Of a stretch of DNA of 64,000 bases, positions 3,026-64,000 are shown piece after piece (within the stretch, counting starts at the first letter, position 1; every line of letters begins with the position of its first letter). Source of the stretch: Trypanosoma brucei (Eukaryota); the NCBI GenBank assembly GCA_000002445.1, contig CP000068.1:128001-192000 (forward strand), read 5' to 3'. The translations under genes and the position numbers were made by a program. The notes beneath the pieces were generated by a model. That model did no database searches. It was not told where the DNA came from and saw nothing but the letters and a program-made list of their open reading frames with translations.

Positions 3026-4147
3026 CTAACAATCCTCTTCTTCCTCAGCGACTGCGGAAACGGGAGCGTAAGCACTCTGCACCTTCAAGCTGTTCTTTAT
3101 GCAGCGAAATAGCAAGAAACCGAGAACCAAAAAGAGTAACGAAGCAGTCACCACAATTATGCACGTGACAATGTCCTTCGATATTATTCCGTCTATAGAC
3201 GATTTCAATGACTTCTTCTCATGGTGCTTTCCAGTCGGGGTAGAGGATCGCACCAATTCCTTCAACGCATTCTTGTGCTTTTTCAACTCCTCAGCAGCGT
3301 TATGAACACTTTTTGTTGCCTCCTCCAACTTCTTAAGTTCATGTAGGGAAGAATTATAATCTCCCGTCCATTCCTCCTCAGGCACCGTACACGGACCCTC
3401 TGAAGCATATCCGTGACTTATGCAACTCGCATTCCATTGCTTGCTCGTATGTTTAACAGCTGCAAGCCCCGGTTTTGCACCATCCCAAGCGTTTATTGCA
3501 TTCGACATGGCCTCATATGTGACGTTAGCAGCAGTCACATTATCAGAACCTCCAATACTCTTACAATCAATTTTGAAGGCACCGGCTCCAGCAGCCGCAG
3601 CAATGCCATCGTCGCAGTTATTATTCACATTATGACTCTTCTTACCTTCCTTTGCACCAGTAATTGTTGTATTGCAGTATATCGTCAGTACCTTATTCAT
3701 TCCTTTGCTCTCAGAATCCCCCACTGCCTTTTTTGCGTGTTCCACGGCTTTGCTGGAGGCGTTTGTAATAATTTCATGTTGCTTCTTCACTTCTTCATCA
3801 GCTTTTGCGCTGGCGTTCAACACCGCATCGAGATGCCTCTTTATCGCATCCCCCACCGTTGCGTTCTTTGCTTTTATGGAGTCAACTAACTTACCAACCT
3901 TCTGCCGTGTCCTGTTCAAAGCAGAGGATGTGTTCTGAATAAACTTAATCTTCTGTGCTGTGGTATTTAAAATACCATCCGCAACACTTTGCATGGATCC
4001 CGCAAGGCCATACATGATGCATAATGCCCTAGCTCCTTCTTTATTAAATCTCTTGAGAGCAGGGCGCTGGCCTTTCTCAGCCGCAGCAAATGCAACGGCA
4101 GTAATTACTGATGCCAAAATGTAGGAGTGACGCAATCTTGCGCCCAT
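3026..4147 (-). CDS. ISG-like type I transmembrane surface glycoprotein, paralog 2
   Basis: 373-aa ORF. The first ~60 aa and a central ~150-aa block are identical to paralog 3. Own TM (IVTCIIVVTASLLFLVLGFLLF) and an acidic tail ending ...AVAEEEEDC. An identical 150-bp upstream region is shared with paralog 3. Confidence 0.55.
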   Translation of the reverse strand: MGARLRHSYILASVITAVAFAAAEKGQRPALKRFNKEGARALCIMYGLAGSMQSVADGILNTTAQKIKFIQNTSSALNRTRQKVGKLVDSIKAKNATVGDAIKRHLDAVLNASAKADEEVKKQHEIITNASSKAVEHAKKAVGDSESKGMNKVLTIYCNTTITGAKEGKKSHNVNNNCDDGIAAAAGAGAFKIDCKSIGGSDNVTAANVTYEAMSNAINAWDGAKPGLAAVKHTSKQWNASCISHGYASEGPCTVPEEEWTGDYNSSLHELKKLEEATKSVHNAAEELKKHKNALKELVRSSTPTGKHHEKKSLKSSIDGIISKDIVTCIIVVTASLLFLVLGFLLFRCIKNSLKVQSAYAPVSAVAEEEEDC

Positions 4148-5163: not shown

Positions 5164-6297
5164 CTATATCATGAGTCGAGACCCTGACCTCTTGGTCCCA
5201 AAAGCGCTACCTCTGTTAAACCCGCGACGATTCATTAGCAAAAGTAATACACTAGTTGCGGGCACTATAGCCACAAAGCAAATGGCAACGGCAACAAGAT
5301 AACCAACAATGTCCGTGCCGCGATCCGAACTGTCGGGTGCCGGGACCAATGGTTCCGTAAGAGAATCATTACGATTTAAGTTGGAGGATCGCATCAGCCG
5401 CTGCACCACATCACCCGTCTGCGTTTTCATACCCTCAGCAGCGTTATGAACACTTTTTGTTGCCTCCTCCAACTTCTTAAGTTCATGTAGGGAAGAATTA
5501 TAATCTCCCGTCCATTCCTCCTCAGGCACCGTACACGGACCCTCTGAAGCATATCCGTGACTTATGCAACTCGCATTCCATTGCTTGCTCGTATGTTTAA
5601 CAGCTGCAAGCCCCGGTTTTGCACCATCCCAAGCGTTTATTGCATTCGACATGGCCTCATATGTGACGTTAGCAGCAGTCACATTATCAGAACCTCCAAT
5701 ACTCTTACAATCAATTCTGAAGGCACCGGCTCCAGCAGCCGCAGCAATGCCATCGTCGCAGTTATTATTCACATTATGACTCTTCTTACCTTCCTTTGCA
5801 CCAGTAATTGTTGTATTGCAGTATATCGTCAGTACCTTATTCATTCCTTTGCTCTCAGAATCCCCCACTGCCTTTTTTGCGTGTTCCACGGCTTTGCGGG
5901 AAGCGCCAGCAATAATTTCATGTTGCTCCTTTAGCTTTCTTTGGCCCCAGTCGAGAACTTCAAGTGCATCCTCTAGCTCCTTCTTTGCCCTGCTAAACTT
6001 TGCCGCATCTTCTATTGTCTCACCTTCCTCACGCTCCATCTGAACAACCTCCTCATGCCTAGCTTTAATCAGAACGAATGCTTCTTCAATATAAGCGATT
6101 TTATCGTGCATACTCTTTAAAATACCATCCGCAACACTTTGCATGGATCCCGCAAGGCCATACATGATGCATAATGCCCTAGCTCCTTCTTTATTAAATC
6201 TCTTGAGAGCAGGGCGCTGGCCTTTCTCAGCCGCAGCAAATGCAACGGCAGTAATTACTGATGCCAAAATGTAGGAGTGACGCAATCTTGCGCCCAT
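5164..6297 (-). CDS. ISG-like type I transmembrane surface glycoprotein, paralog 3
   Basis: 377-aa ORF. N-terminus MGARLRHSYILASVITAVAFAAAEKGQRPALKRFNKEGARALCIMYGLAGSMQSVADGIL is identical to paralog 2. The middle segment and C-terminus diverge (TM IVGYLVAVAICFVAIVPATSVLLLL, basic tail MNRRGFNRGSAFGTKRSGSRLMI). Confidence 0.55.
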   Translation of the reverse strand: MGARLRHSYILASVITAVAFAAAEKGQRPALKRFNKEGARALCIMYGLAGSMQSVADGILKSMHDKIAYIEEAFVLIKARHEEVVQMEREEGETIEDAAKFSRAKKELEDALEVLDWGQRKLKEQHEIIAGASRKAVEHAKKAVGDSESKGMNKVLTIYCNTTITGAKEGKKSHNVNNNCDDGIAAAAGAGAFRIDCKSIGGSDNVTAANVTYEAMSNAINAWDGAKPGLAAVKHTSKQWNASCISHGYASEGPCTVPEEEWTGDYNSSLHELKKLEEATKSVHNAAEGMKTQTGDVVQRLMRSSNLNRNDSLTEPLVPAPDSSDRGTDIVGYLVAVAICFVAIVPATSVLLLLMNRRGFNRGSAFGTKRSGSRLMI

Positions 6298-55104: not shown

Positions 55105-56508
55105 TCAAGCTTTTCGCTTACGATCAGCTTCAAGATTTCCCTTATTCACAATTGGCCATGAATCAATCTGTACCAAGAAGGGCAGGTACATGTATACCTT
55201 GTCGCGGTACCTCTTATCTTCTTCAATTGGGTTACGCTCAAGATACACGGTCTTCAAAGTGCTTGTGAAGCCACTTAACTTTCCTACCTCTTCCCAATCT
55301 GCTATATTTCCATCAGTGAGCCAAAACTCCTCAAGTTTGGGCATGGTTTGCGGATTGATCTCTTCAGCGTCGATTGAACATATCGAGTTGAAACTAAAAT
55401 CGATAATTTTGATTGTTGATAGGTGTCGCACGTTCCCAACAGAAGTAAGGCCGTTCTCGGACAAGTATACTTCCCTCAAATTAGGATTGGCCTTTGCTCC
55501 CAAGAAGTTTTCCGCATCAACAGAGGTAATTCGGTTTGCCTGCAAACTAAGGATCTCTAGCGAAACCAATTTGTGAAGCGCGGTACCAATGGAACTTATC
55601 TTATTCTTGCCGAGCCACAACTGTTTCAACTTCGTCAACTTCTCCAACCCGGAACCGATGGCACGTAAACGGTTGCCCCCTAATTCAAGTAACTCAAGGT
55701 TCACCAGAGAATCAAGATTTTTAACCTCTTTAATTTTATTTTCGACCAGATAAAGCTCTCTCAGCGTACCCCCGATGGAATCGAGTCCACCGATTTCACG
55801 AATCTGATTGTAACTTAGGTCCAATTTCGTGAGACATTTGTATGCGTTGGGGAGTGTTTTCGTCGTGGGCGGGTCACCAGGGACTGTTACTGTCTCGAAA
55901 AAATCGTTCAGCTTACGAATTTTGTTGTCGAAAAGATCCAACTCATCAAGGCGATCGGCGAGGTCCTCAGGAAACGGAATAAGATCATGCAAGAGATTCT
56001 TGCGCAAGGAAAGGGATGTGCATTCAGTCAACTTGTCAAGCTCAATTTCAGCCACTGAAAACAGGCGAATATTATTTATCTCTATGATTTTGCTCTTCGT
56101 ATCAATCCTAAGAATAGCCTCCGCCACCTGACGGTATCTATCTTCATCTCGAGTAATGCTTGGAGGCACTTCCTCGCCGTCACTTTCAATGTCCGTGCGT
56201 TTCTCAGAAGGTATCTCTTGAGCACAGAACATGGCCTCAAGGCCTAGCCTTAATTTTTGGTTCCGTTGCTCTTTTTCGTTGGCGTCCGGTTCTGATTTCC
56301 CACCCTCCTGTGACATAGTTGCGACTTTTTTTTTTAGAAGAGTACAAAAAGATGGTATAGATGTCAGCAGAACCAAGACGACGGTGATAAGCAGCAGATG
56401 TAAATGCAACAAGGACGGGAAGAAGTACAATTTATTATTGTAGATCACAAGCCTCTTGACCTCCCGTTCATACAACCAATAGCGCGTCTCGAACGTCCTC
56501 GAGCGCAC
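55105..56508 (-). CDS. Leucine-rich-repeat protein (SDS22/LRR-22-residue type)
   Basis: At least 10 tandem ~22-aa LRRs (LDLSYNQIREIGGLDSIGGTLRELYLVENKIKEVKNLDSLVNLELLELGGNRLRAIG...). The probable true start is the internal Met MSQEGGKSEPD (~56316); the longer ORF N-terminus is hydrophobic low-complexity. Confidence 0.7.
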   Translation of the reverse strand: MRSRTFETRYWLYEREVKRLVIYNNKLYFFPSLLHLHLLLITVVLVLLTSIPSFCTLLKKKVATMSQEGGKSEPDANEKEQRNQKLRLGLEAMFCAQEIPSEKRTDIESDGEEVPPSITRDEDRYRQVAEAILRIDTKSKIIEINNIRLFSVAEIELDKLTECTSLSLRKNLLHDLIPFPEDLADRLDELDLFDNKIRKLNDFFETVTVPGDPPTTKTLPNAYKCLTKLDLSYNQIREIGGLDSIGGTLRELYLVENKIKEVKNLDSLVNLELLELGGNRLRAIGSGLEKLTKLKQLWLGKNKISSIGTALHKLVSLEILSLQANRITSVDAENFLGAKANPNLREVYLSENGLTSVGNVRHLSTIKIIDFSFNSICSIDAEEINPQTMPKLEEFWLTDGNIADWEEVGKLSGFTSTLKTVYLERNPIEEDKRYRDKVYMYLPFLVQIDSWPIVNKGNLEADRKRKA

Positions 56509-56981
56509 TATGAACTCGCATGTCCCCGGGTAGGGTCGGAATTCCCCGCCTGTTTCCTCTTCCTTTCGGCGTGTCTTCGCCGAATGCTCTTAACTCCGTG
56601 AATGATTTGTTTGCGCAGCTGTTTGAATCCCTTCTGTCTCTTATTGATCACATGCGGGAACTGAACAGCTGCAATTTGTTGTGCTAATGGTTTCTCAGCG
56701 ACGCGTTTAGTAACGGGCCCTAGTCCCATAGACTCCTCCAGCTTCAGCTGGTCGTCGTGCTTCTGCTGGAACCTCTTGCGTTTTATTTGGCGCGACCCCC
56801 GAAGACCCCGTGGGGTTTTCTTGCCTGTATTTTTACCCTGTGCGTGTGTCACGATGGCAACCCTCAGTCCTCTCCCGAATCCACGGCCCATTGAACCCGG
56901 ATTTCGTGTAGATGAATTAATACGTTCAGGTTCCCTCCAGTCCAAAAAAAAAAACAGTGTCGAGAAAGAGACAAAAGTCAA
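56508..56981 (-). CDS. Possible small, highly basic (Arg/Lys-rich) protein
   Basis: 157-aa ORF. The internal Met MGRGFGRGLRVAIVTHAQGKNTGKK... is followed by a K/R-rich sequence. No family recognised. Shares a boundary nucleotide with the LRR ORF, and both cannot be full length. Confidence 0.25.
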   Translation of the reverse strand: MTFVSFSTLFFFLDWREPERINSSTRNPGSMGRGFGRGLRVAIVTHAQGKNTGKKTPRGLRGSRQIKRKRFQQKHDDQLKLEESMGLGPVTKRVAEKPLAQQIAAVQFPHVINKRQKGFKQLRKQIIHGVKSIRRRHAERKRKQAGNSDPTRGHASS

Positions 56982-59900
56982 TATGCAAACGCAGACGCAA
57001 AAGAAAGTTCAAGCGGACAAATTAGATCGGAACAAAATCTGCTAAAGCGTAATCCATTATAATCATGTGAAAAGGAGTGACCTTTCATCCAAAGGGGAAC
57101 TCTTAGAAATGAAAAAAAATATGTAAATGTTGCTTAAAATGGTGACCACGCGTGGCCGGTGGGCGTATTTCACCCCATTTGGGTGCCGAGATAATATGAT
57201 TCAAATTGCGATAAAGCGAATATGTGCAACTGATACTAGTGGATGTTCGTTGCTGCATCATCAGTGAGCACAGACAGATGCAAAGCGTACCAGACTTATA
57301 ACCCTTTCAAACAAAAAGATATCTCACAGCCGTGGAGAAATAAATAAATACCTCAAACGCAACACAAAATGAAACATAGGTTCATAACGAAAAACTTTTT
57401 TTTAATCCTTGTAAAAGAGCTTATTCATTCTGCAGGTCACAGAAGTAGAAGAAGTGCGGGTAGGGGAATAGGTCGAAACTGACGGCTGTCCCACAGTAGC
57501 TCTCCTGCATTAACAGTGGAGCTGTTGCTCAAATTCAAAAACTATTTGATGGTACAAACGAGCAGGAAGAACGATGAAGAGCCACGGATTCAGCCTATAA
57601 TACCATCTTCTTGCACGTCAAGCGCCTAACACAAAGCTACAGCACGACAACCCATTGAGCAGGATGTGGTCCAGTGCGAAACAAACGGTCGTTGAATTGT
57701 GGCACCAGCGCTTTGAGCTGTAGACAACGGAATTCTTCATCGCAAACACACCTGCAGTGAGAAGGGCAGTAAGAGACAGAGTTGCAGCCAGGTGAAGAGG
57801 GAATCACAACGTTCAAAGAGACAGAGCAGTTAATCCATACCGAATAACTCATCGCCGGTCTCACCGCCTCGCAGTACCGTGCATCAGACAAGACAGTTGA
57901 CAGTTGAAACAAAAAAGGAAGACAGGCACGAGAAACCACTTGACTGCCACCAGTCCGTCATTCCGAACACGTAGAAGGAACGCCGTTGAACTGAAAACGG
58001 CACCAGGTCATTTGATTTAACTTGCAAGCATCCACAGCTCAAGGGTATCAAAGACTTTTCGCGAAGATAACACAGCTCATTCCTTCATCGGGCCCTCCTG
58101 AACAATTGGAACACACAAAAATACCTCCTCAGAAGGGCTTTCAGGAAAACATCAGCACCGAATCAACATGGAAACACAAAAATAATTTCGGGCCATCTAG
58201 TTTAATCTCACGAGTTCGCCCCATTCACGGTGTCATGAGCAACCCTCACGGATTATCAAAAGATTAAAGTGCATATCGAATAAAATCGAGAAACGCTTTA
58301 GATGTAAGGCACCCCTGCTACACATAATAAACACAGTGCGAAAACCTCTCCCGGCCAAATCCCCTCCCTTCGTGTACGTGCCGCACCTCTGGAATACAAA
58401 GAACGATCGCGGCAAATATAAAAAAAACCGCTTCGGAATGCTGTACATAACCATGGACCACACAAACACACAAAAAACACGACAAAAAGCGAACACCCAT
58501 CGGGGCGGAACAGAAATGATCAATCCGGGAAACGCAAACCACCACGAAATGATCCGTAAAGCAAAAAAGAAAAAAATGGCGCTACACGGCAAACCCTCCG
58601 CCACCACTGCCCCTCCGGTAGCACACCACACGCGACCAAACACCCACCATCGTTTCGGCGTGTACCCCGTCAACATGGCTCCACCGCCCAGCACTTCACC
58701 CGGGGGGGACTGGGCAGCTGTATGCATCCAACCCCTTAGTGACCGGGGCTGTCGGTCGGCTGCTGGTTGCTGGAGCAATGGGGGGAAGTGGCAAATTGGC
58801 TCCCCGGTGTGGGAAGTGATATCCTTACGGCCCTCCCCACGCTCTTGCACGTTCCCGTGGGCGCGTAGGGGCAACTTCTGCCATGGGAACGCACCATAGA
58901 TAGCGGTACTCCACTCATCGCTGCATCGTAAGGGACCATCTCACCGAAGTGTCCTTGTATTAAAGGGAGTTTGCTTCCGCATTTTGAGGGAGACACATCC
59001 ACGCGACGAAGAAATGAAATGCAAAATGATACCCGTATTTCCGGAGCACTGGAAGAGCAAACCCCTTCAGGAGTTGATGAGTGTTAAAGCCGGAACAGGG
59101 CGGGATGGCCACAGTGCGGGGTTCTACAAAGGTAAGAAAGCGCGGGAGAGTGAAAATTTGGCCAACAGCCGAAAAGGGGCCGCGGGTAGTACCCGCGTCG
59201 ATACATTTACGAGGGTTAGAGGCAAAAACAAAACTGGAACTCAGCAAATTGCGCCCAGCGAAAGTCGCGCCGCGCGTACATGTGAGTATAAATTGGCGTG
59301 GCTTAGGTTAGTGTCCACGCACCCGGCTACACAGCGGAGGATACTGTGTTGTAAAACGGCGCTTGGAAGAACTCTTGATTAGAAAAAAAAAGCAAAAAAG
59401 GGAGCTCCACGGGAAAATCTCCAGACTGCAAGCGAGCTCCAGCACCAGGCCTAGCCATCCACGGGGAGTGTGGTGTCAAGCTAGATCCCGACATTGAATC
59501 CAACCGGAAGGCACGATTAGAATACGATAGAAACAGGCGTCGACGTGGATGCTGCTCAAATTAGTTCTTACAGCCATCACCACACACTACTCGAATGGAA
59601 TAGAGCCGATTGAGCGGCTTACCAATGAACTTGCGTGCCTTGGCTGGGAAATTCTTTACGAGGATATGTCAAGAAACGTCAGGAGCTTCGAAGAGGGAAT
59701 TACCAGAAGTGAGGGCCTATGAACCCAAATTACTGACCATGGGAGCGCCGGAATTACCAACAGCTAAATTCTGCACAGGAACCGCGCCTGTGGGAGATAT
59801 TGTATGCTGAGAAGGAGTGAAGAGGCTCTGTAGGAAGAAGAGGCACCGCTTACTGGGGTTATATTTCACCACATGGAACACACTGTGACGCCGAAACTGC

Positions 59901-60899
59901 AGAGAAAGGGTGTTTTAATATCAGCCTTGAAGGCACACGAGCCTGTAATAAAGGTGGCATCACTCCTGCAATTTACAGTACGAATACTTTCTACAAGTCG
60001 ATGGAAAGAATGGTTGTCAGGATCCCGAAAGATCAACTGCGTAGCCTACTTCACCCACAACTGCCAAGGACTCATGCCCTCAACTGCAAGGGTTAAAGCA
60101 CGTTTGTTTAGTGTAATAATTGAGGCAGAATAGTCTGCACCTTACCTACTCCTACATATAGAAGAGATTTATGATAAAAGATATAATTAATTAAATGACC
60201 AATCTTAGGGTATCCCGGTAAGCTTTTTCAATGTAGATAAAACTCCCAATATTAAGACAATGAAAGAAACAAAACACTTACGATAAGGAATTGGTGAAAG
60301 CGTTCTCATCCCGCCTCCCGCGCTCCCTATCACAAGTTCCACCCTTTCGCTAAGTCCGATGGAAAAACTGCCCTCCTCCGTGAGATACCATCAGCGAAAT
60401 TCGCTAATGAAACAACATAGTCTCAAAGAGCCTCGATGCCTTCCTCCAGATAAGCATGATCTATTAAACTTACTTCTTGAACCGAAGCATCGGAGTGTGT
60501 GTTACCTTTTTTCGTGACATGCATAACTGTAGTATTATCCACACATACGTGAATATTATTAAGCAGGCTGCCCTGAAAAGCTCTCAATGCCAATGTCACT
60601 GCTCTCGCCTTGGTATGAGAGATACAATGTGGAGGTTGTTCTCACTGGCCTCCTGAAGCCCATACTTTCCCGCTGTCCTTAAAAAGTAAGGCTCCCCAAC
60701 CGTGTATAGAAGCATCGGTAACCGATGTTGCAGAAGTCAGTAATTACCTTGACGGCTTAACGGGTTCTTTTTCGATCAACCCGCTTAGTCACTCCTGCCC
60801 CATGCGGATTGCCTGGAGGGAAAGCCGTGCCATGTCGTTCTGCGCCAAGACACACCTGTTGAGCTCCGACAAGCGCCGTCTTACCATCTTTAAGAAAAA

Positions 60900-61806
60900 A
60901 TAATGTCGGAACAGAGAATCTCCCCGCACCCCCGCCGCATACATCATTCGGGATACTATGCTCTCCAAATTGTCAACAGTAACCCTCTCAGTGGGATAGC
61001 CTCCCTGAGCTTCCGCACCGTTTTTTTGCTCAATGGCACCATCTTTGAACCATGACCAAAGTGGACTCCAATGAAATCATATAGTGCGGTGATGGACTTG
61101 CTTTTCCATGAAGTTGCGCCGCGCTGTAACATGTTTCTTCTAATCACCTTGTTCCATCAGTTTACAACTTCCCGTGGACTGCTAATACGAATATTATCAA
61201 TCCACACATGTACTTTTAGCTACGAAGGCGCTGCATATTCAGCTTTCACTACTGCAGAGTCCCCGGCCAATACACACGGGGCCGTGTGTAAGACTCCCGG
61301 GCCACACTTGTAACCCATAGGAAGTCGGGCAAGTTCCACGAGCTTTCCACCTGCCGTCCGGCATAAGAAACCTGATCGGGTGTCCATCAGCAAGCCCGCT
61401 TTTAAGAAAACGAAGCTTTTAAATCACAAAGCGCTGCACCCTCATCATGGACAGCATCCAGGTAGCGTGGCACGTGTCCCAGAGGAACAATAGCTTCATA
61501 ATCGTCCTGTGCATTCTTAGACTTTGGCCATGTAATGATTCGCCCTCGACAACCCGTTGGCTTCTCTTCCAGCACCGTGAAGGGCACCACCCAACCCGTG
61601 GTAGGGTTGTTGGACACTTTCTGAATTGTACCCTCTCTTTCCACGGTGATAGTATTCTGGTCTGAAATCGTCAATTTTGGCTCGTATTCCCGACCTTCTT
61701 TCCTGGCCGGTCTGCGCATGGTCTCCCAAACATCATTGAAGAGCTGTAAATATTGACTATTCAGTCGTTGCTTGATCCATTTTAGCGATAAAGTCTCCAC
61801 ATTCAT
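60900..61806 (-). pseudogene. Reverse-transcriptase fragment, catalytically degenerate
   Basis: RT motifs read on the minus strand: GWVVPFTVLEEKPTGCRGRIITWPKSKN, LPMGYKCGPGV (resembles F-x-x-LPFGL-x-x-AP) and WIDNI in place of the catalytic Y-I/V-DD, interrupted by in-frame stops. Confidence 0.55.
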
Positions 61807-63039
61807 CTGTTGTTACGGTAACTCCTGTTGCTCAGTATCCGAGGCGACCTTGGTTTGATGGGTGCGTCGGAGAATGTTGTGTCTCTGAAATAAAGGTCCT
61901 GTCCTATTATTTTTATCGTTGGATTCTGAACCTTCCACAGTAACGTGGCCCACTCACCCTCCGTTTCTACATGAGCGCTGTTAGATTTACTGACTTGTTT
62001 AGCACAGCCACCCATGGCCCTAAATACCTAGTGGTGCTCCGACGAAATTCCATGGGGTCCGCGTGTTTTCCCATCTTGGCCAGAATGCGTGAGTCGAGGT
62101 CGTTTTCTATCACCGCTACGGTCGCATGAGGTAGAGACCCTCTTTTTTATAGAATGCATCGTCATTCCGTAAGGTTTCAGAATGTTTTCCATGTCCCTTC
62201 TGCTGATGGTGGTTAGTTTTTCTTCATCCGCCCTCCACCTTACGACTTTCTTCAACTTTTTGGCGTCCTCGCCCGCGATGACGACATTTCACGCTGCTCT
62301 GTGGGGATCTAACTTGGATGTCTTTGGGATGCCCCCCAGTCGACGATTAGTGCCTCCTCGTCCTGAGGATGAGCGACAAAATTTTCCTTTTGCGGCGACG
62401 CAATCTCTCCCCAACGACTGGCAGTGACCCAAGCCAGACGCATGGCCACTCGCTCCCTTTCCTGTTCCATTGTGTCGCTTATCATGTCCAGTTCCCACAT
62501 CTCCATGGGGCAGGCCTGCTTTATTGGTGGTTCTGCCACTTTTCTCTGCAAACCTTTCAAAAGGATTCTTGTTGGTGCCTTTTCCGCTGTCAGCATCACA
62601 AAAGAGTTCTTGTATACTGCACAGCGTTGCTTTTGGCCAGCTGCAAGCTCACAATGAAGACGGGAACATTCCCCTCGCTTGGCTCCACGTTGTGCTTTGC
62701 CACAGACTCGCAGAATCTCCTGAGAATCGACCCCAACTGCTCCCATATTGACTGTGTCCAAATTCTTTTTGCGATGTGATTCGCTTTTGAAGCCCACGCC
62801 ACCATAATCGTATCGTGGGTGGTTTTATAATGATAACTTCCTTTGCCGGTGTTTTCGTAGGGCGCAAAACTGGGGATGCCGTTTCTCTTGCTGGCTCTCT
62901 TCCCTCTGTGTCCTCCTCTACCATGAGACCTTTCCCCGGCAAGTTTTCCGTGGCATTTCTCCATTCGCTATTACCCACTTGTGGGTCCTTGGCCCCGTAA
63001 CCATGGACACGGATTCCAATATTTTCTCGGCCCCGAAGC

Positions 63040-63429
63040 TTACTGTTTCCGGGGCCGACATTCGCTTTTTGGCTTCCACGGAACCTTGGCATCCTTAACG
63101 AAGCATGACGTACTGTAGTGCCACAACTTCCCACATCGGAAGCATCGTATTCTGCTAACTTGGGAAGTCGGTTTTTGAACTTTGGGGTATGCTTGATGGT
63201 ATGGATCCTCGTCCCTCCTTGAGTCATGTACTGCCTTTGCAAACGCTTCCACTCGCACCCCCGAGTGGGCTCTCTCTGTTTGCAAGACTCGAAGATAAGT
63301 GTGAATCGACCTCCCGACTGTTATCCCACCTTCTGAGAGGCCTTCCAATCCTACTGCATTTATCCACGCCGCAAATTGCTCCCAGACGCATTGTAACCCG
63401 TGATCCGATTTTTGTGGTAATGGGAACAA
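63040..63429 (-). pseudogene. Gag-like fragment with CCHC zinc knuckle
   Basis: C-x2-C-x4-H-x4-C (CFRCGKLWHYSTSC) in the 129-aa ORF. Overlapping alternative-frame ORFs (62649-63242, 63224-63574) indicate frameshift decay. Confidence 0.55.
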
Positions 63430-64000
63430 TTCTTTGTACGCAGTTAAAAAACTGTTCCGGTGATGTCTCTGTCATGTATTCGATTTCCCCTTCAAACGTC
63501 CGCATATTTTCTTCAGGGCGAAAACCCTTGTCCACAAAGTTATTTTTTAACCGCTGAATGCCTCTGATTCCCACCTTGGGGTTCCTTACATATTTACCGC
63601 TTGATTTCTGAGTAAACTGTGATTTGTATGACTCAAAAGTGAACTTTATTTCTATTCTACCTTTTCCTTTCGATCTGATTCATTCTTCACTCTCTCTCTT
63701 GTTCGACAACTGGATCCGTTTTATGTGTGGCGTCCGTATTTGCTAATATATTTCAGTGGTGTAATCCAGCTGTTATCGATTCAATGACAGCTTCCAACCC
63801 ATTGATATGGAAGAGCACCTGTTCCATTTCCCCTCTCAAAGCACAATTTTCTTGCATGAACCTTTCAACTTGCCCATTCAGTTCCATCGACTGGTTTTGC
63901 ATTCTCCAGTGCTCATCATTCATCTGTGCTCTTGTCATTTCGTACTGTTGGTATAAATTAGACTTATTTGCCTCTAGTGCTAGACATTCGTTACGAAACA

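Follow-up and report, generated by a model that had tools for sequence, protein, structure and literature searches.

Evidence for a degenerate VIPER retrotransposon copy in the pericentromeric region of Trypanosoma brucei chromosome 5

We analyzed a 64,000-nucleotide stretch (the window) of chromosome 5 of Trypanosoma brucei brucei TREU927. Its last part, from position 60121 to 64000 on the minus strand, very probably holds a pericentromeric, degenerate, and nonautonomous copy of VIPER (vestigial interposed retroelement), a tyrosine recombinase (YR) retrotransposon of the order DIRS. The span was defined by collinear tblastn matches, and the 5' part of the element, Gag start included, lies some 290 nt or more past the window end. 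It contains the remnants of three open reading frames (ORFs): a Gag-like ORF1, a YR ORF2, and an ORF3 for reverse transcriptase and RNase H (RT/RH). The tblastn queries were the intact Gag of T. theileri (421 aa), the YR of T. theileri (P0046), and an RT/RH of T. grayi (P0001). Over the whole window, their matches were confined to positions 60285-63580 and were collinear. An earlier note on this DNA, made from its letters, had proposed a dead retrotransposon with an LTR/DIRS-like order (LTR, long terminal repeat) and a VIPER-like identity. This proposal holds, as the best relatives are VIPER proteins and the Gag, YR, and RT/RH remnants are collinear with the VIPER of T. theileri.

Loci used for comparison were from T. 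b. gambiense (L002 and L005; L005 is FN554968.1), T. b. equiperdum (L003), T. equiperdum (L001; CZPT02000067.1), and T. theileri (L004; NBCO01000001.1).

Coding remnants of the element

Homology to RT/RH spans 62193-60309 on the minus strand in tblastn, and its start overlaps the 3' end of the YR. The RT part of ORF3 (60989-62193, minus strand) was recognized from homologues, motifs, and a structural model. It contains motif A (CDLKASF, 61428-61408), motif B (LPMGYKCGPGV, 61324-61292), and motif C (WIDNI, 61204-61190), all on the minus strand; the last two had already been read in minus-strand frames from the letters alone and are present there. Motifs A and B align with the RTs of human immunodeficiency virus type 1 (HIV-1) and cauliflower mosaic virus (CaMV). 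The connection and RNase H part (60309-60995, minus strand) has 6 in-frame stops and aligns with residues 421-649 of P0001 at 57.6% identity. Also on the minus strand, it contains TDASIHGWGA (60719-60690), VDNTTV (60542-60525), and NFADGISR (60401-60378). The acidic residues of the RNase H are invariant or nearly so among family members in a 75-member alignment.

The stitched RT/RH translation (489 aa) matched 14 proteins. The best was TcC31.12 of T. grayi, with an E value of 4.6e-159, 54% identity, and 100% coverage. Further matches were from T. theileri, T. melophagium, and T. vivax, followed by Diplonema papillatum at about 30% identity. A first structure prediction for the RT, made with 11 sequences, was poor in the palm, with a predicted local distance difference test (pLDDT) score of 53.9. 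The prediction was redone with 75 sequences. The AlphaFold model of the RT/RH on this alignment had a pLDDT of 93.6 and a predicted template modeling score of 0.86. Its best fold matches were the RTs of CaMV, Moloney murine leukemia virus, HIV-1, foamy virus, and Ty3. No RT of the long interspersed nuclear element (LINE) type was among the top 50 fold matches. This makes it an RT of the LTR/pararetrovirus type.

The YR remnant (ORF2) is located at 61970-62820 on the minus strand, where it is split into four frame pieces and has one in-frame stop. Within it lie the Arg box VTASRWGEI (62428-62402), the segment DWGAS (62341-62327), HSIKK (62156-62142), and TTRYLG (62035-62018), all on the minus strand. 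The stitched Gag and YR query matched one protein, P0046 of T. theileri (319 aa), with an E value of 1.5e-96 and 57% identity. The boxes VTASRWGEI, HSIK(K)RG, and TTRYLG are conserved between the window YR and the T. theileri YR. The best PDB matches of P0046 were the integrases 5c6k and 5dor. These matches were weak (E = 0.1) but aligned exactly at the Arg box. DWGAS aligns with IIVDWGA of the intact T. theileri YR, between its Arg box and its HSIKRG and RYLG boxes. It had been read as a possible retropepsin and is instead a conserved segment of the YR. VIPER has no protease.

The Gag-like remnant (ORF1) is located at 63043-64000 on the minus strand. It consists of a coiled-coil part at 63753-64000 in frame 3 and of pieces at 63580-63392 and 63456-63043 in the two other frames. 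The T. theileri Gag-like protein matched the window with tblastn E values of 6e-8 and 1.9e-21. Its residues 1-421 align with the collinear T. b. gambiense locus at L002:2013-3264. The CCHC zinc knuckle CFRCGKLWHYSTSC (CX2CX4HX4C; 63103-63144, minus strand) confirms the knuckle reported earlier. It is in register with CYRCGRIGHYSSTC of the T. theileri Gag, which matches Pfam zf-CCHC with an E value of 2.9e-4. The pattern CX2CX4HX4C has a single occurrence in the six frames of the window, against a mean of 0.13 in shuffled sequence.

All three ORFs are interrupted, as expected of a dead element broken by stops and frameshifts. In total, the copy has 9 or more frameshifts and some 11 in-frame stops relative to intact relatives, and the ORFs that remain are short and in changing frames. 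The Gag has at least two frame changes relative to its intact relative. The RT/RH is split into five frame pieces and contains ten in-frame stops, and three of these stand in place of tryptophans. The copy can encode none of its three proteins.

Motif C had also been counted as a sign of decay, as it reads WIDN where YxDD might be expected. WIDN is not decay. It is the native motif C of this RT family and is nearly invariant in all RT/RH homologues, open ORFs and diplonemid proteins included. We searched 1.84 billion representative sequences with a family profile, obtained 9380 relatives at E values up to 0.001, and aligned the best 150 of them. About 90% of these best 150 of 9380, intact ORFs included, have a motif C of the form W/Y/F-I/V-D-N/G. 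A tally over about 160 sequences (the same best 150 plus the remaining RT/RH homologues) gave 93 with xxDN, 52 with xxDG, and 13 (about 8%) with xxDD. The family with this motif spans kinetoplastids and diplonemids. In the 75-member alignment, the Asp of motif A (D113) and the first Asp of motif C (D188) are invariant, and position 189 is variable. In the model, which is of high confidence, I187-D188 sits where strand 182-186 turns into strand 189-194, at the catalytic beta-hairpin of the palm.

A different placement of motif C was given by hhalign of the family profile against the HIV-1 RT. It aligned motifs A and B and put motif C on a nonconserved QYAAP. This placement was rejected because D188 is invariant and because of the hairpin position in the model. 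The RT of the VIPER clade thus naturally does without the second Asp of YxDD, and this should not be read as inactivation. The families DIRS-1, other DIRS, Ngaro, and PAT typically keep YxDD. We found no description of WIDN or of an altered YXDD in VIPER in open-access full text, a body of literature that does not include the original VIPER family paper (Lorenzi et al. 2006).

Family identity and competing explanations

TcC31.12, the name of the best match, is borne by the RT ORFs of VIPER, including those of Angomonas relatives. A layout of Gag, YR, and RT/RH in which YR and RT overlap is that described for VIPER (PMC6681497; PMC12278014). VIPER elements are present in T. cruzi, T. brucei, and T. 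vivax and form the VIPER-like subgroup of DIRS, which has been proposed as one of four DIRS subgroups (Ribeiro et al. 2019). The window copy shares with them the CH-box Gag, the YR, and the overlapping RT/RNase H. The intact relative used for comparison was the T. theileri VIPER (L004). It contains a Gag of 421 aa with a coiled-coil middle part and a CCHC knuckle, the YR of 319 aa, and an RT ORF, collinear on one strand. Its Gag and YR ORFs are open, whereas all ORFs of the window copy are broken. Kinship to DIRS-1 of Dictyostelium, other DIRS, Ngaro, and PAT is only distant in sequence. They likewise have a YR instead of a DDE integrase and no protease, but their terminal-repeat architecture differs from that of VIPER.

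In the literature model, an intact VIPER would be transcribed, its Gag-like protein would bind RNA through the CCHC knuckle, its RT/RNase H would make DNA from RNA, and its YR would insert this DNA without a target-site duplication. The element in the window may once have had this life cycle, but the present copy, with its three broken ORFs, can carry out none of these steps.

Annotated names in this family vary. The YR of the T. theileri VIPER (L004:8001-8960) is misnamed trans-sialidase, and the name Target of rapamycin (TOR) is given to some RT fragments of the T. theileri VIPER. The T. b. gambiense ORFs L002:4598-5020 and L002:728-1114, inside or just upstream of the relic, are annotated as "hypothetical protein, unlikely."

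TATE, the sister YR retrotransposon of kinetoplastids, has a Gag-YR-RT/RH layout identical to that of VIPER (PMC6681497), and T. theileri, the origin of several of the best matches, has both families. However, the best matches bear the VIPER name TcC31.12. The Gag in the window has a CH-box, whereas TATE Gags are without one (PMC6681497). TATE has 0 reported copies in T. brucei versus 76 for VIPER (PMC12278014, Table 1). We consider it very unlikely that the element is a TATE.

It is even less probable that the CCHC piece and the RT piece come from two unrelated adjacent insertions, although the region is heavily decayed and its identity profile against other subspecies is mosaic. As in the single intact T. 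theileri element, Gag is followed on one strand by YR and then by RT/RH, and the YR and RT overlap. The spacing also agrees, with about 115 nt from the Gag stop to the YR start in the window and 133 nt in T. theileri L004. The three pieces are therefore one element. In addition, tblastn over the whole window found no second VIPER fragment elsewhere.

A non-LTR relic of the ingi/DIRE class would fit the place, as reports on T. brucei centromeres usually name this class, which is listed for T. brucei in PMC13508446 (Table 1). It does not fit the element. There is a YR between Gag and RT, and the RT/RH has a fold of the retroviral, LTR, and caulimovirus type rather than an ingi-like one, none of the top 50 matches being a LINE RT. 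The sequence at the 3' end, on inspection, has no A-run, and no endonuclease domain was found in a Pfam scan of the (short) ORF fragments of the element. An ingi/DIRE origin is thus extremely improbable. Equally hard to credit is an origin from an LTR retrotransposon or a retrovirus-like element that has Gag, aspartic protease, and RT: the CCHC Gag, the LTR-type RT/RNase H, and the D-x-G-A-S string suggest one, but DWGAS is inside the YR, no flanking LTRs or other direct repeats were found, and the Pfam scan of the same short fragments had no protease or DDE integrase match.

Ends, flanks, and chromosomal setting

Two independent observations indicate that the 3' end of the element lies near 60121-60137. 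A second VIPER 3' end heads the T. equiperdum scaffold; it is 94.6% identical to window 60212-60121 and diverges past 60121. The dense differences to T. b. equiperdum end at window 60138. The putative 3' untranslated tail at 60121-60308 (minus strand) is bounded by this end of homology with the second copy and by this end of the mosaic tract. The head of the T. equiperdum scaffold (L001:1-349) contains 92 nt of the different VIPER 3' end, then unrelated sequence and an N run, followed by the orthologous locus from window 60180. It looks like an assembly join at a repeat. On the 5' side, alignment of the T. theileri Gag with the collinear T. b. gambiense locus, from L002:2013, puts the Gag start about 292 nt past window position 64000. 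Of the extent of 60100-63700 given in the earlier note, the lower limit is therefore close, and the upper one does not hold, as the element continues past the window end.

A single-copy spacer (56892-60120) separates the element from the nearest gene. With the 3' end near 60121-60137, the 57-60 kb region is outside the element. This region had been suggested as a place for its terminal repeat, for which no evidence was found. The spacer contains no VIPER homology in tblastn, no repeats in common with the element, and no Pfam domains in its ORFs, and repeat searches there were empty. It is about 99% identical in the three T. brucei subspecies and has no mosaic tract. At 57000-60000, the AT skew of the plus strand is strongly positive, from +0.22 to +0.25. 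The minus (coding) strand is therefore T-rich, as expected for trypanosome intergenic and 5' regions with polypyrimidine tracts. No Rfam match was found at 54-64 kb of the window. A phage DNA search, which is irrelevant here, gave no match, and a scan for bacterial promoters and terminators, a method inapplicable to a trypanosome, scored below shuffled sequence.

The first gene of the minus-strand cluster is at 56508-56891 (minus strand). It encodes the 127-aa conserved hypothetical protein XP_844734. An exact look-up placed XP_844734.1 (TREU927) in the protein cluster of its T. b. gambiense orthologue. By accession arithmetic from XP_844716, which is Tb927.5.420, this gene would be Tb927.5.600. 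The next gene, at 55105-56316, encodes a protein phosphatase 1 regulatory subunit (XP_844733; exact protein match). Tb927.5.420 itself, an invariant surface glycoprotein gene, is at 3026-4147 (exact protein match). Together with a neighbor at 5164-6297, it forms a pair of tandem invariant surface glycoprotein-like paralogues on the minus strand that are identical over some 60 aa in their N-terminal part.

T. b. gambiense and T. b. equiperdum have a collinear locus, and the VIPER relic is orthologously present in all three subspecies. Head to tail with the minus-strand polycistronic unit and in the same orientation, it is located upstream of the first gene of that unit. Farther upstream, T. b. 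gambiense L005:3388-5573 contains a 147-bp tandem array of 14.9 copies with a 99% match, broken by an assembly gap. The array is about 5.7 kb upstream of the Gag start of the element in T. b. gambiense, or roughly 6-8 kb past the window end. It gives long spurious ORFs on both strands, of 849 and 889 aa. The approximately 5.7 kb from the array to the relic (L005:5574-11286) contains small ORFs only and no Pfam domains, and the ORFs looked up were annotated as "hypothetical protein, unlikely." From the literature, DIRE or ingi debris would be expected there.

In T. b. gambiense, the 147-bp array is the centromeric repeat of chromosome 5. An AT-rich array of a 148-bp unit has been placed on chromosome 5 between Tb927.5.600 and Tb927.5.610 (Obado et al. 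2007, PMC1868937, Table 1), and the real size of the chromosome 5 centromeric array is 50-75 kb (PMC3292466). The relic lies in the gene-free zone between the gene taken as Tb927.5.600 and the array, which is the position of a T. brucei centromeric domain. In the sense of Obado et al. 2007, such a domain separates directional gene clusters and holds degenerate retroelements along with an AT-rich array whose unit is about 147 bp. With the array upstream and the first gene downstream, the relic can be classed as pericentromeric debris that lies at the boundary of a transcription unit. Such a boundary just upstream of the first cluster gene had been predicted from the window sequence, and the gene at 56508-56891, with the array beyond it in T. 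b. gambiense, bears this out. The pericentromeric ingi and DIRE elements of T. brucei, by their 147-bp AT-rich arrays, occupy the same gene-free niche but belong to the non-LTR class rather than the YR class. The VIPER relic may have a role in centromere or boundary chromatin.

The element and its flanks differ in how far they have diverged. TREU927 and the two other subspecies, T. b. gambiense and T. b. equiperdum, are about 99% identical in the flanks. Within the element (window 60138-63750 compared with L002 and L003), pairwise differences reach up to 13% per 250 nt, and the divergent tracts, of 87-93% identity, differ by pair. The likeliest cause of this mosaic would be ongoing gene conversion with other VIPER copies.

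Several observations weigh against a pericentromeric VIPER copy. The Pfam matches for the YR and RT are below curated thresholds (Phage_integrase for P0046, E = 0.069; RVT_1, E = 0.0013), so that domain identity rests on homologues, motifs, the modeled fold, and the literature. Being too short, the raw ORF fragments had no significant match in a Pfam scan. The split direct repeats of VIPER (A1 at the 5' end; B1-A2-B2 at the 3' end) were not found in the window copy, whose 5' end falls outside the window. Searches of window 56500-64000, of L002:1-10000, and of the 5' flank against the 3' flank gave no direct, split, or inverted terminal repeats, in a copy that is decayed and has an undefined 5' end. 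Terminal repeats had been suggested as a means of defining the ends, which are instead defined only indirectly. Split direct repeats of the A1 and B1-A2-B2 pattern have been identified in just two species, T. cruzi and C. fasciculata, and are atypical or incomplete in B. saltans and T. theileri (PMC6681497). It is the T. b. gambiense sequence, and not the TREU927 window, that contains the 147-bp array. Part of the mosaic could be an artifact of assembling a repeated element.

Novelty and significance of the relic

The degenerate VIPER copy is an ordinary element of an already known kind, and it was correctly identified. VIPER was already known in T. brucei in 2006 (cited in PMC6681497). Only degenerate copies have been found in T. 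brucei (PMC6681497), and the window copy is like them in this respect. With 76 reported copies of a known family, its novelty is low. It is of little importance in itself, being one of about 76 degenerate copies in a niche known to gather dead retroelements. Three points are mildly new: the presence of a VIPER relic close to a centromeric array in T. brucei, the mosaic pattern in which subspecies diverge, and perhaps the D-N/G motif C across the family. The relic can serve to mark the pericentromere of chromosome 5. It is also of use for annotation, as the names given to ORFs inside the relic and to the T. theileri recombinase can be corrected.

A pericentromeric position of VIPER was emphasized earlier for T. 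cruzi, not T. brucei. In T. cruzi, VIPER is enriched at centromeres, and KKT2/3 peaks are 6-fold enriched in VIPER (PMC13508446). Degenerate retroelements are known at T. brucei centromeres, and those named are ingi and DIRE (PMC13508446, Table 1). DIRS-1 is also enriched at centromeres (PMC7192593). We regard it as unlikely that VIPER relics are a shared, nonrandom component of trypanosome centromeres beyond T. cruzi. If this were true in T. brucei, YR retrotransposons would either have centromeric chromatin as their target, like DIRS-1 in Dictyostelium, or have been retained there since before the split of T. brucei and T. cruzi. Continuing sequence exchange would then tie the pericentromeres to dispersed VIPER copies.

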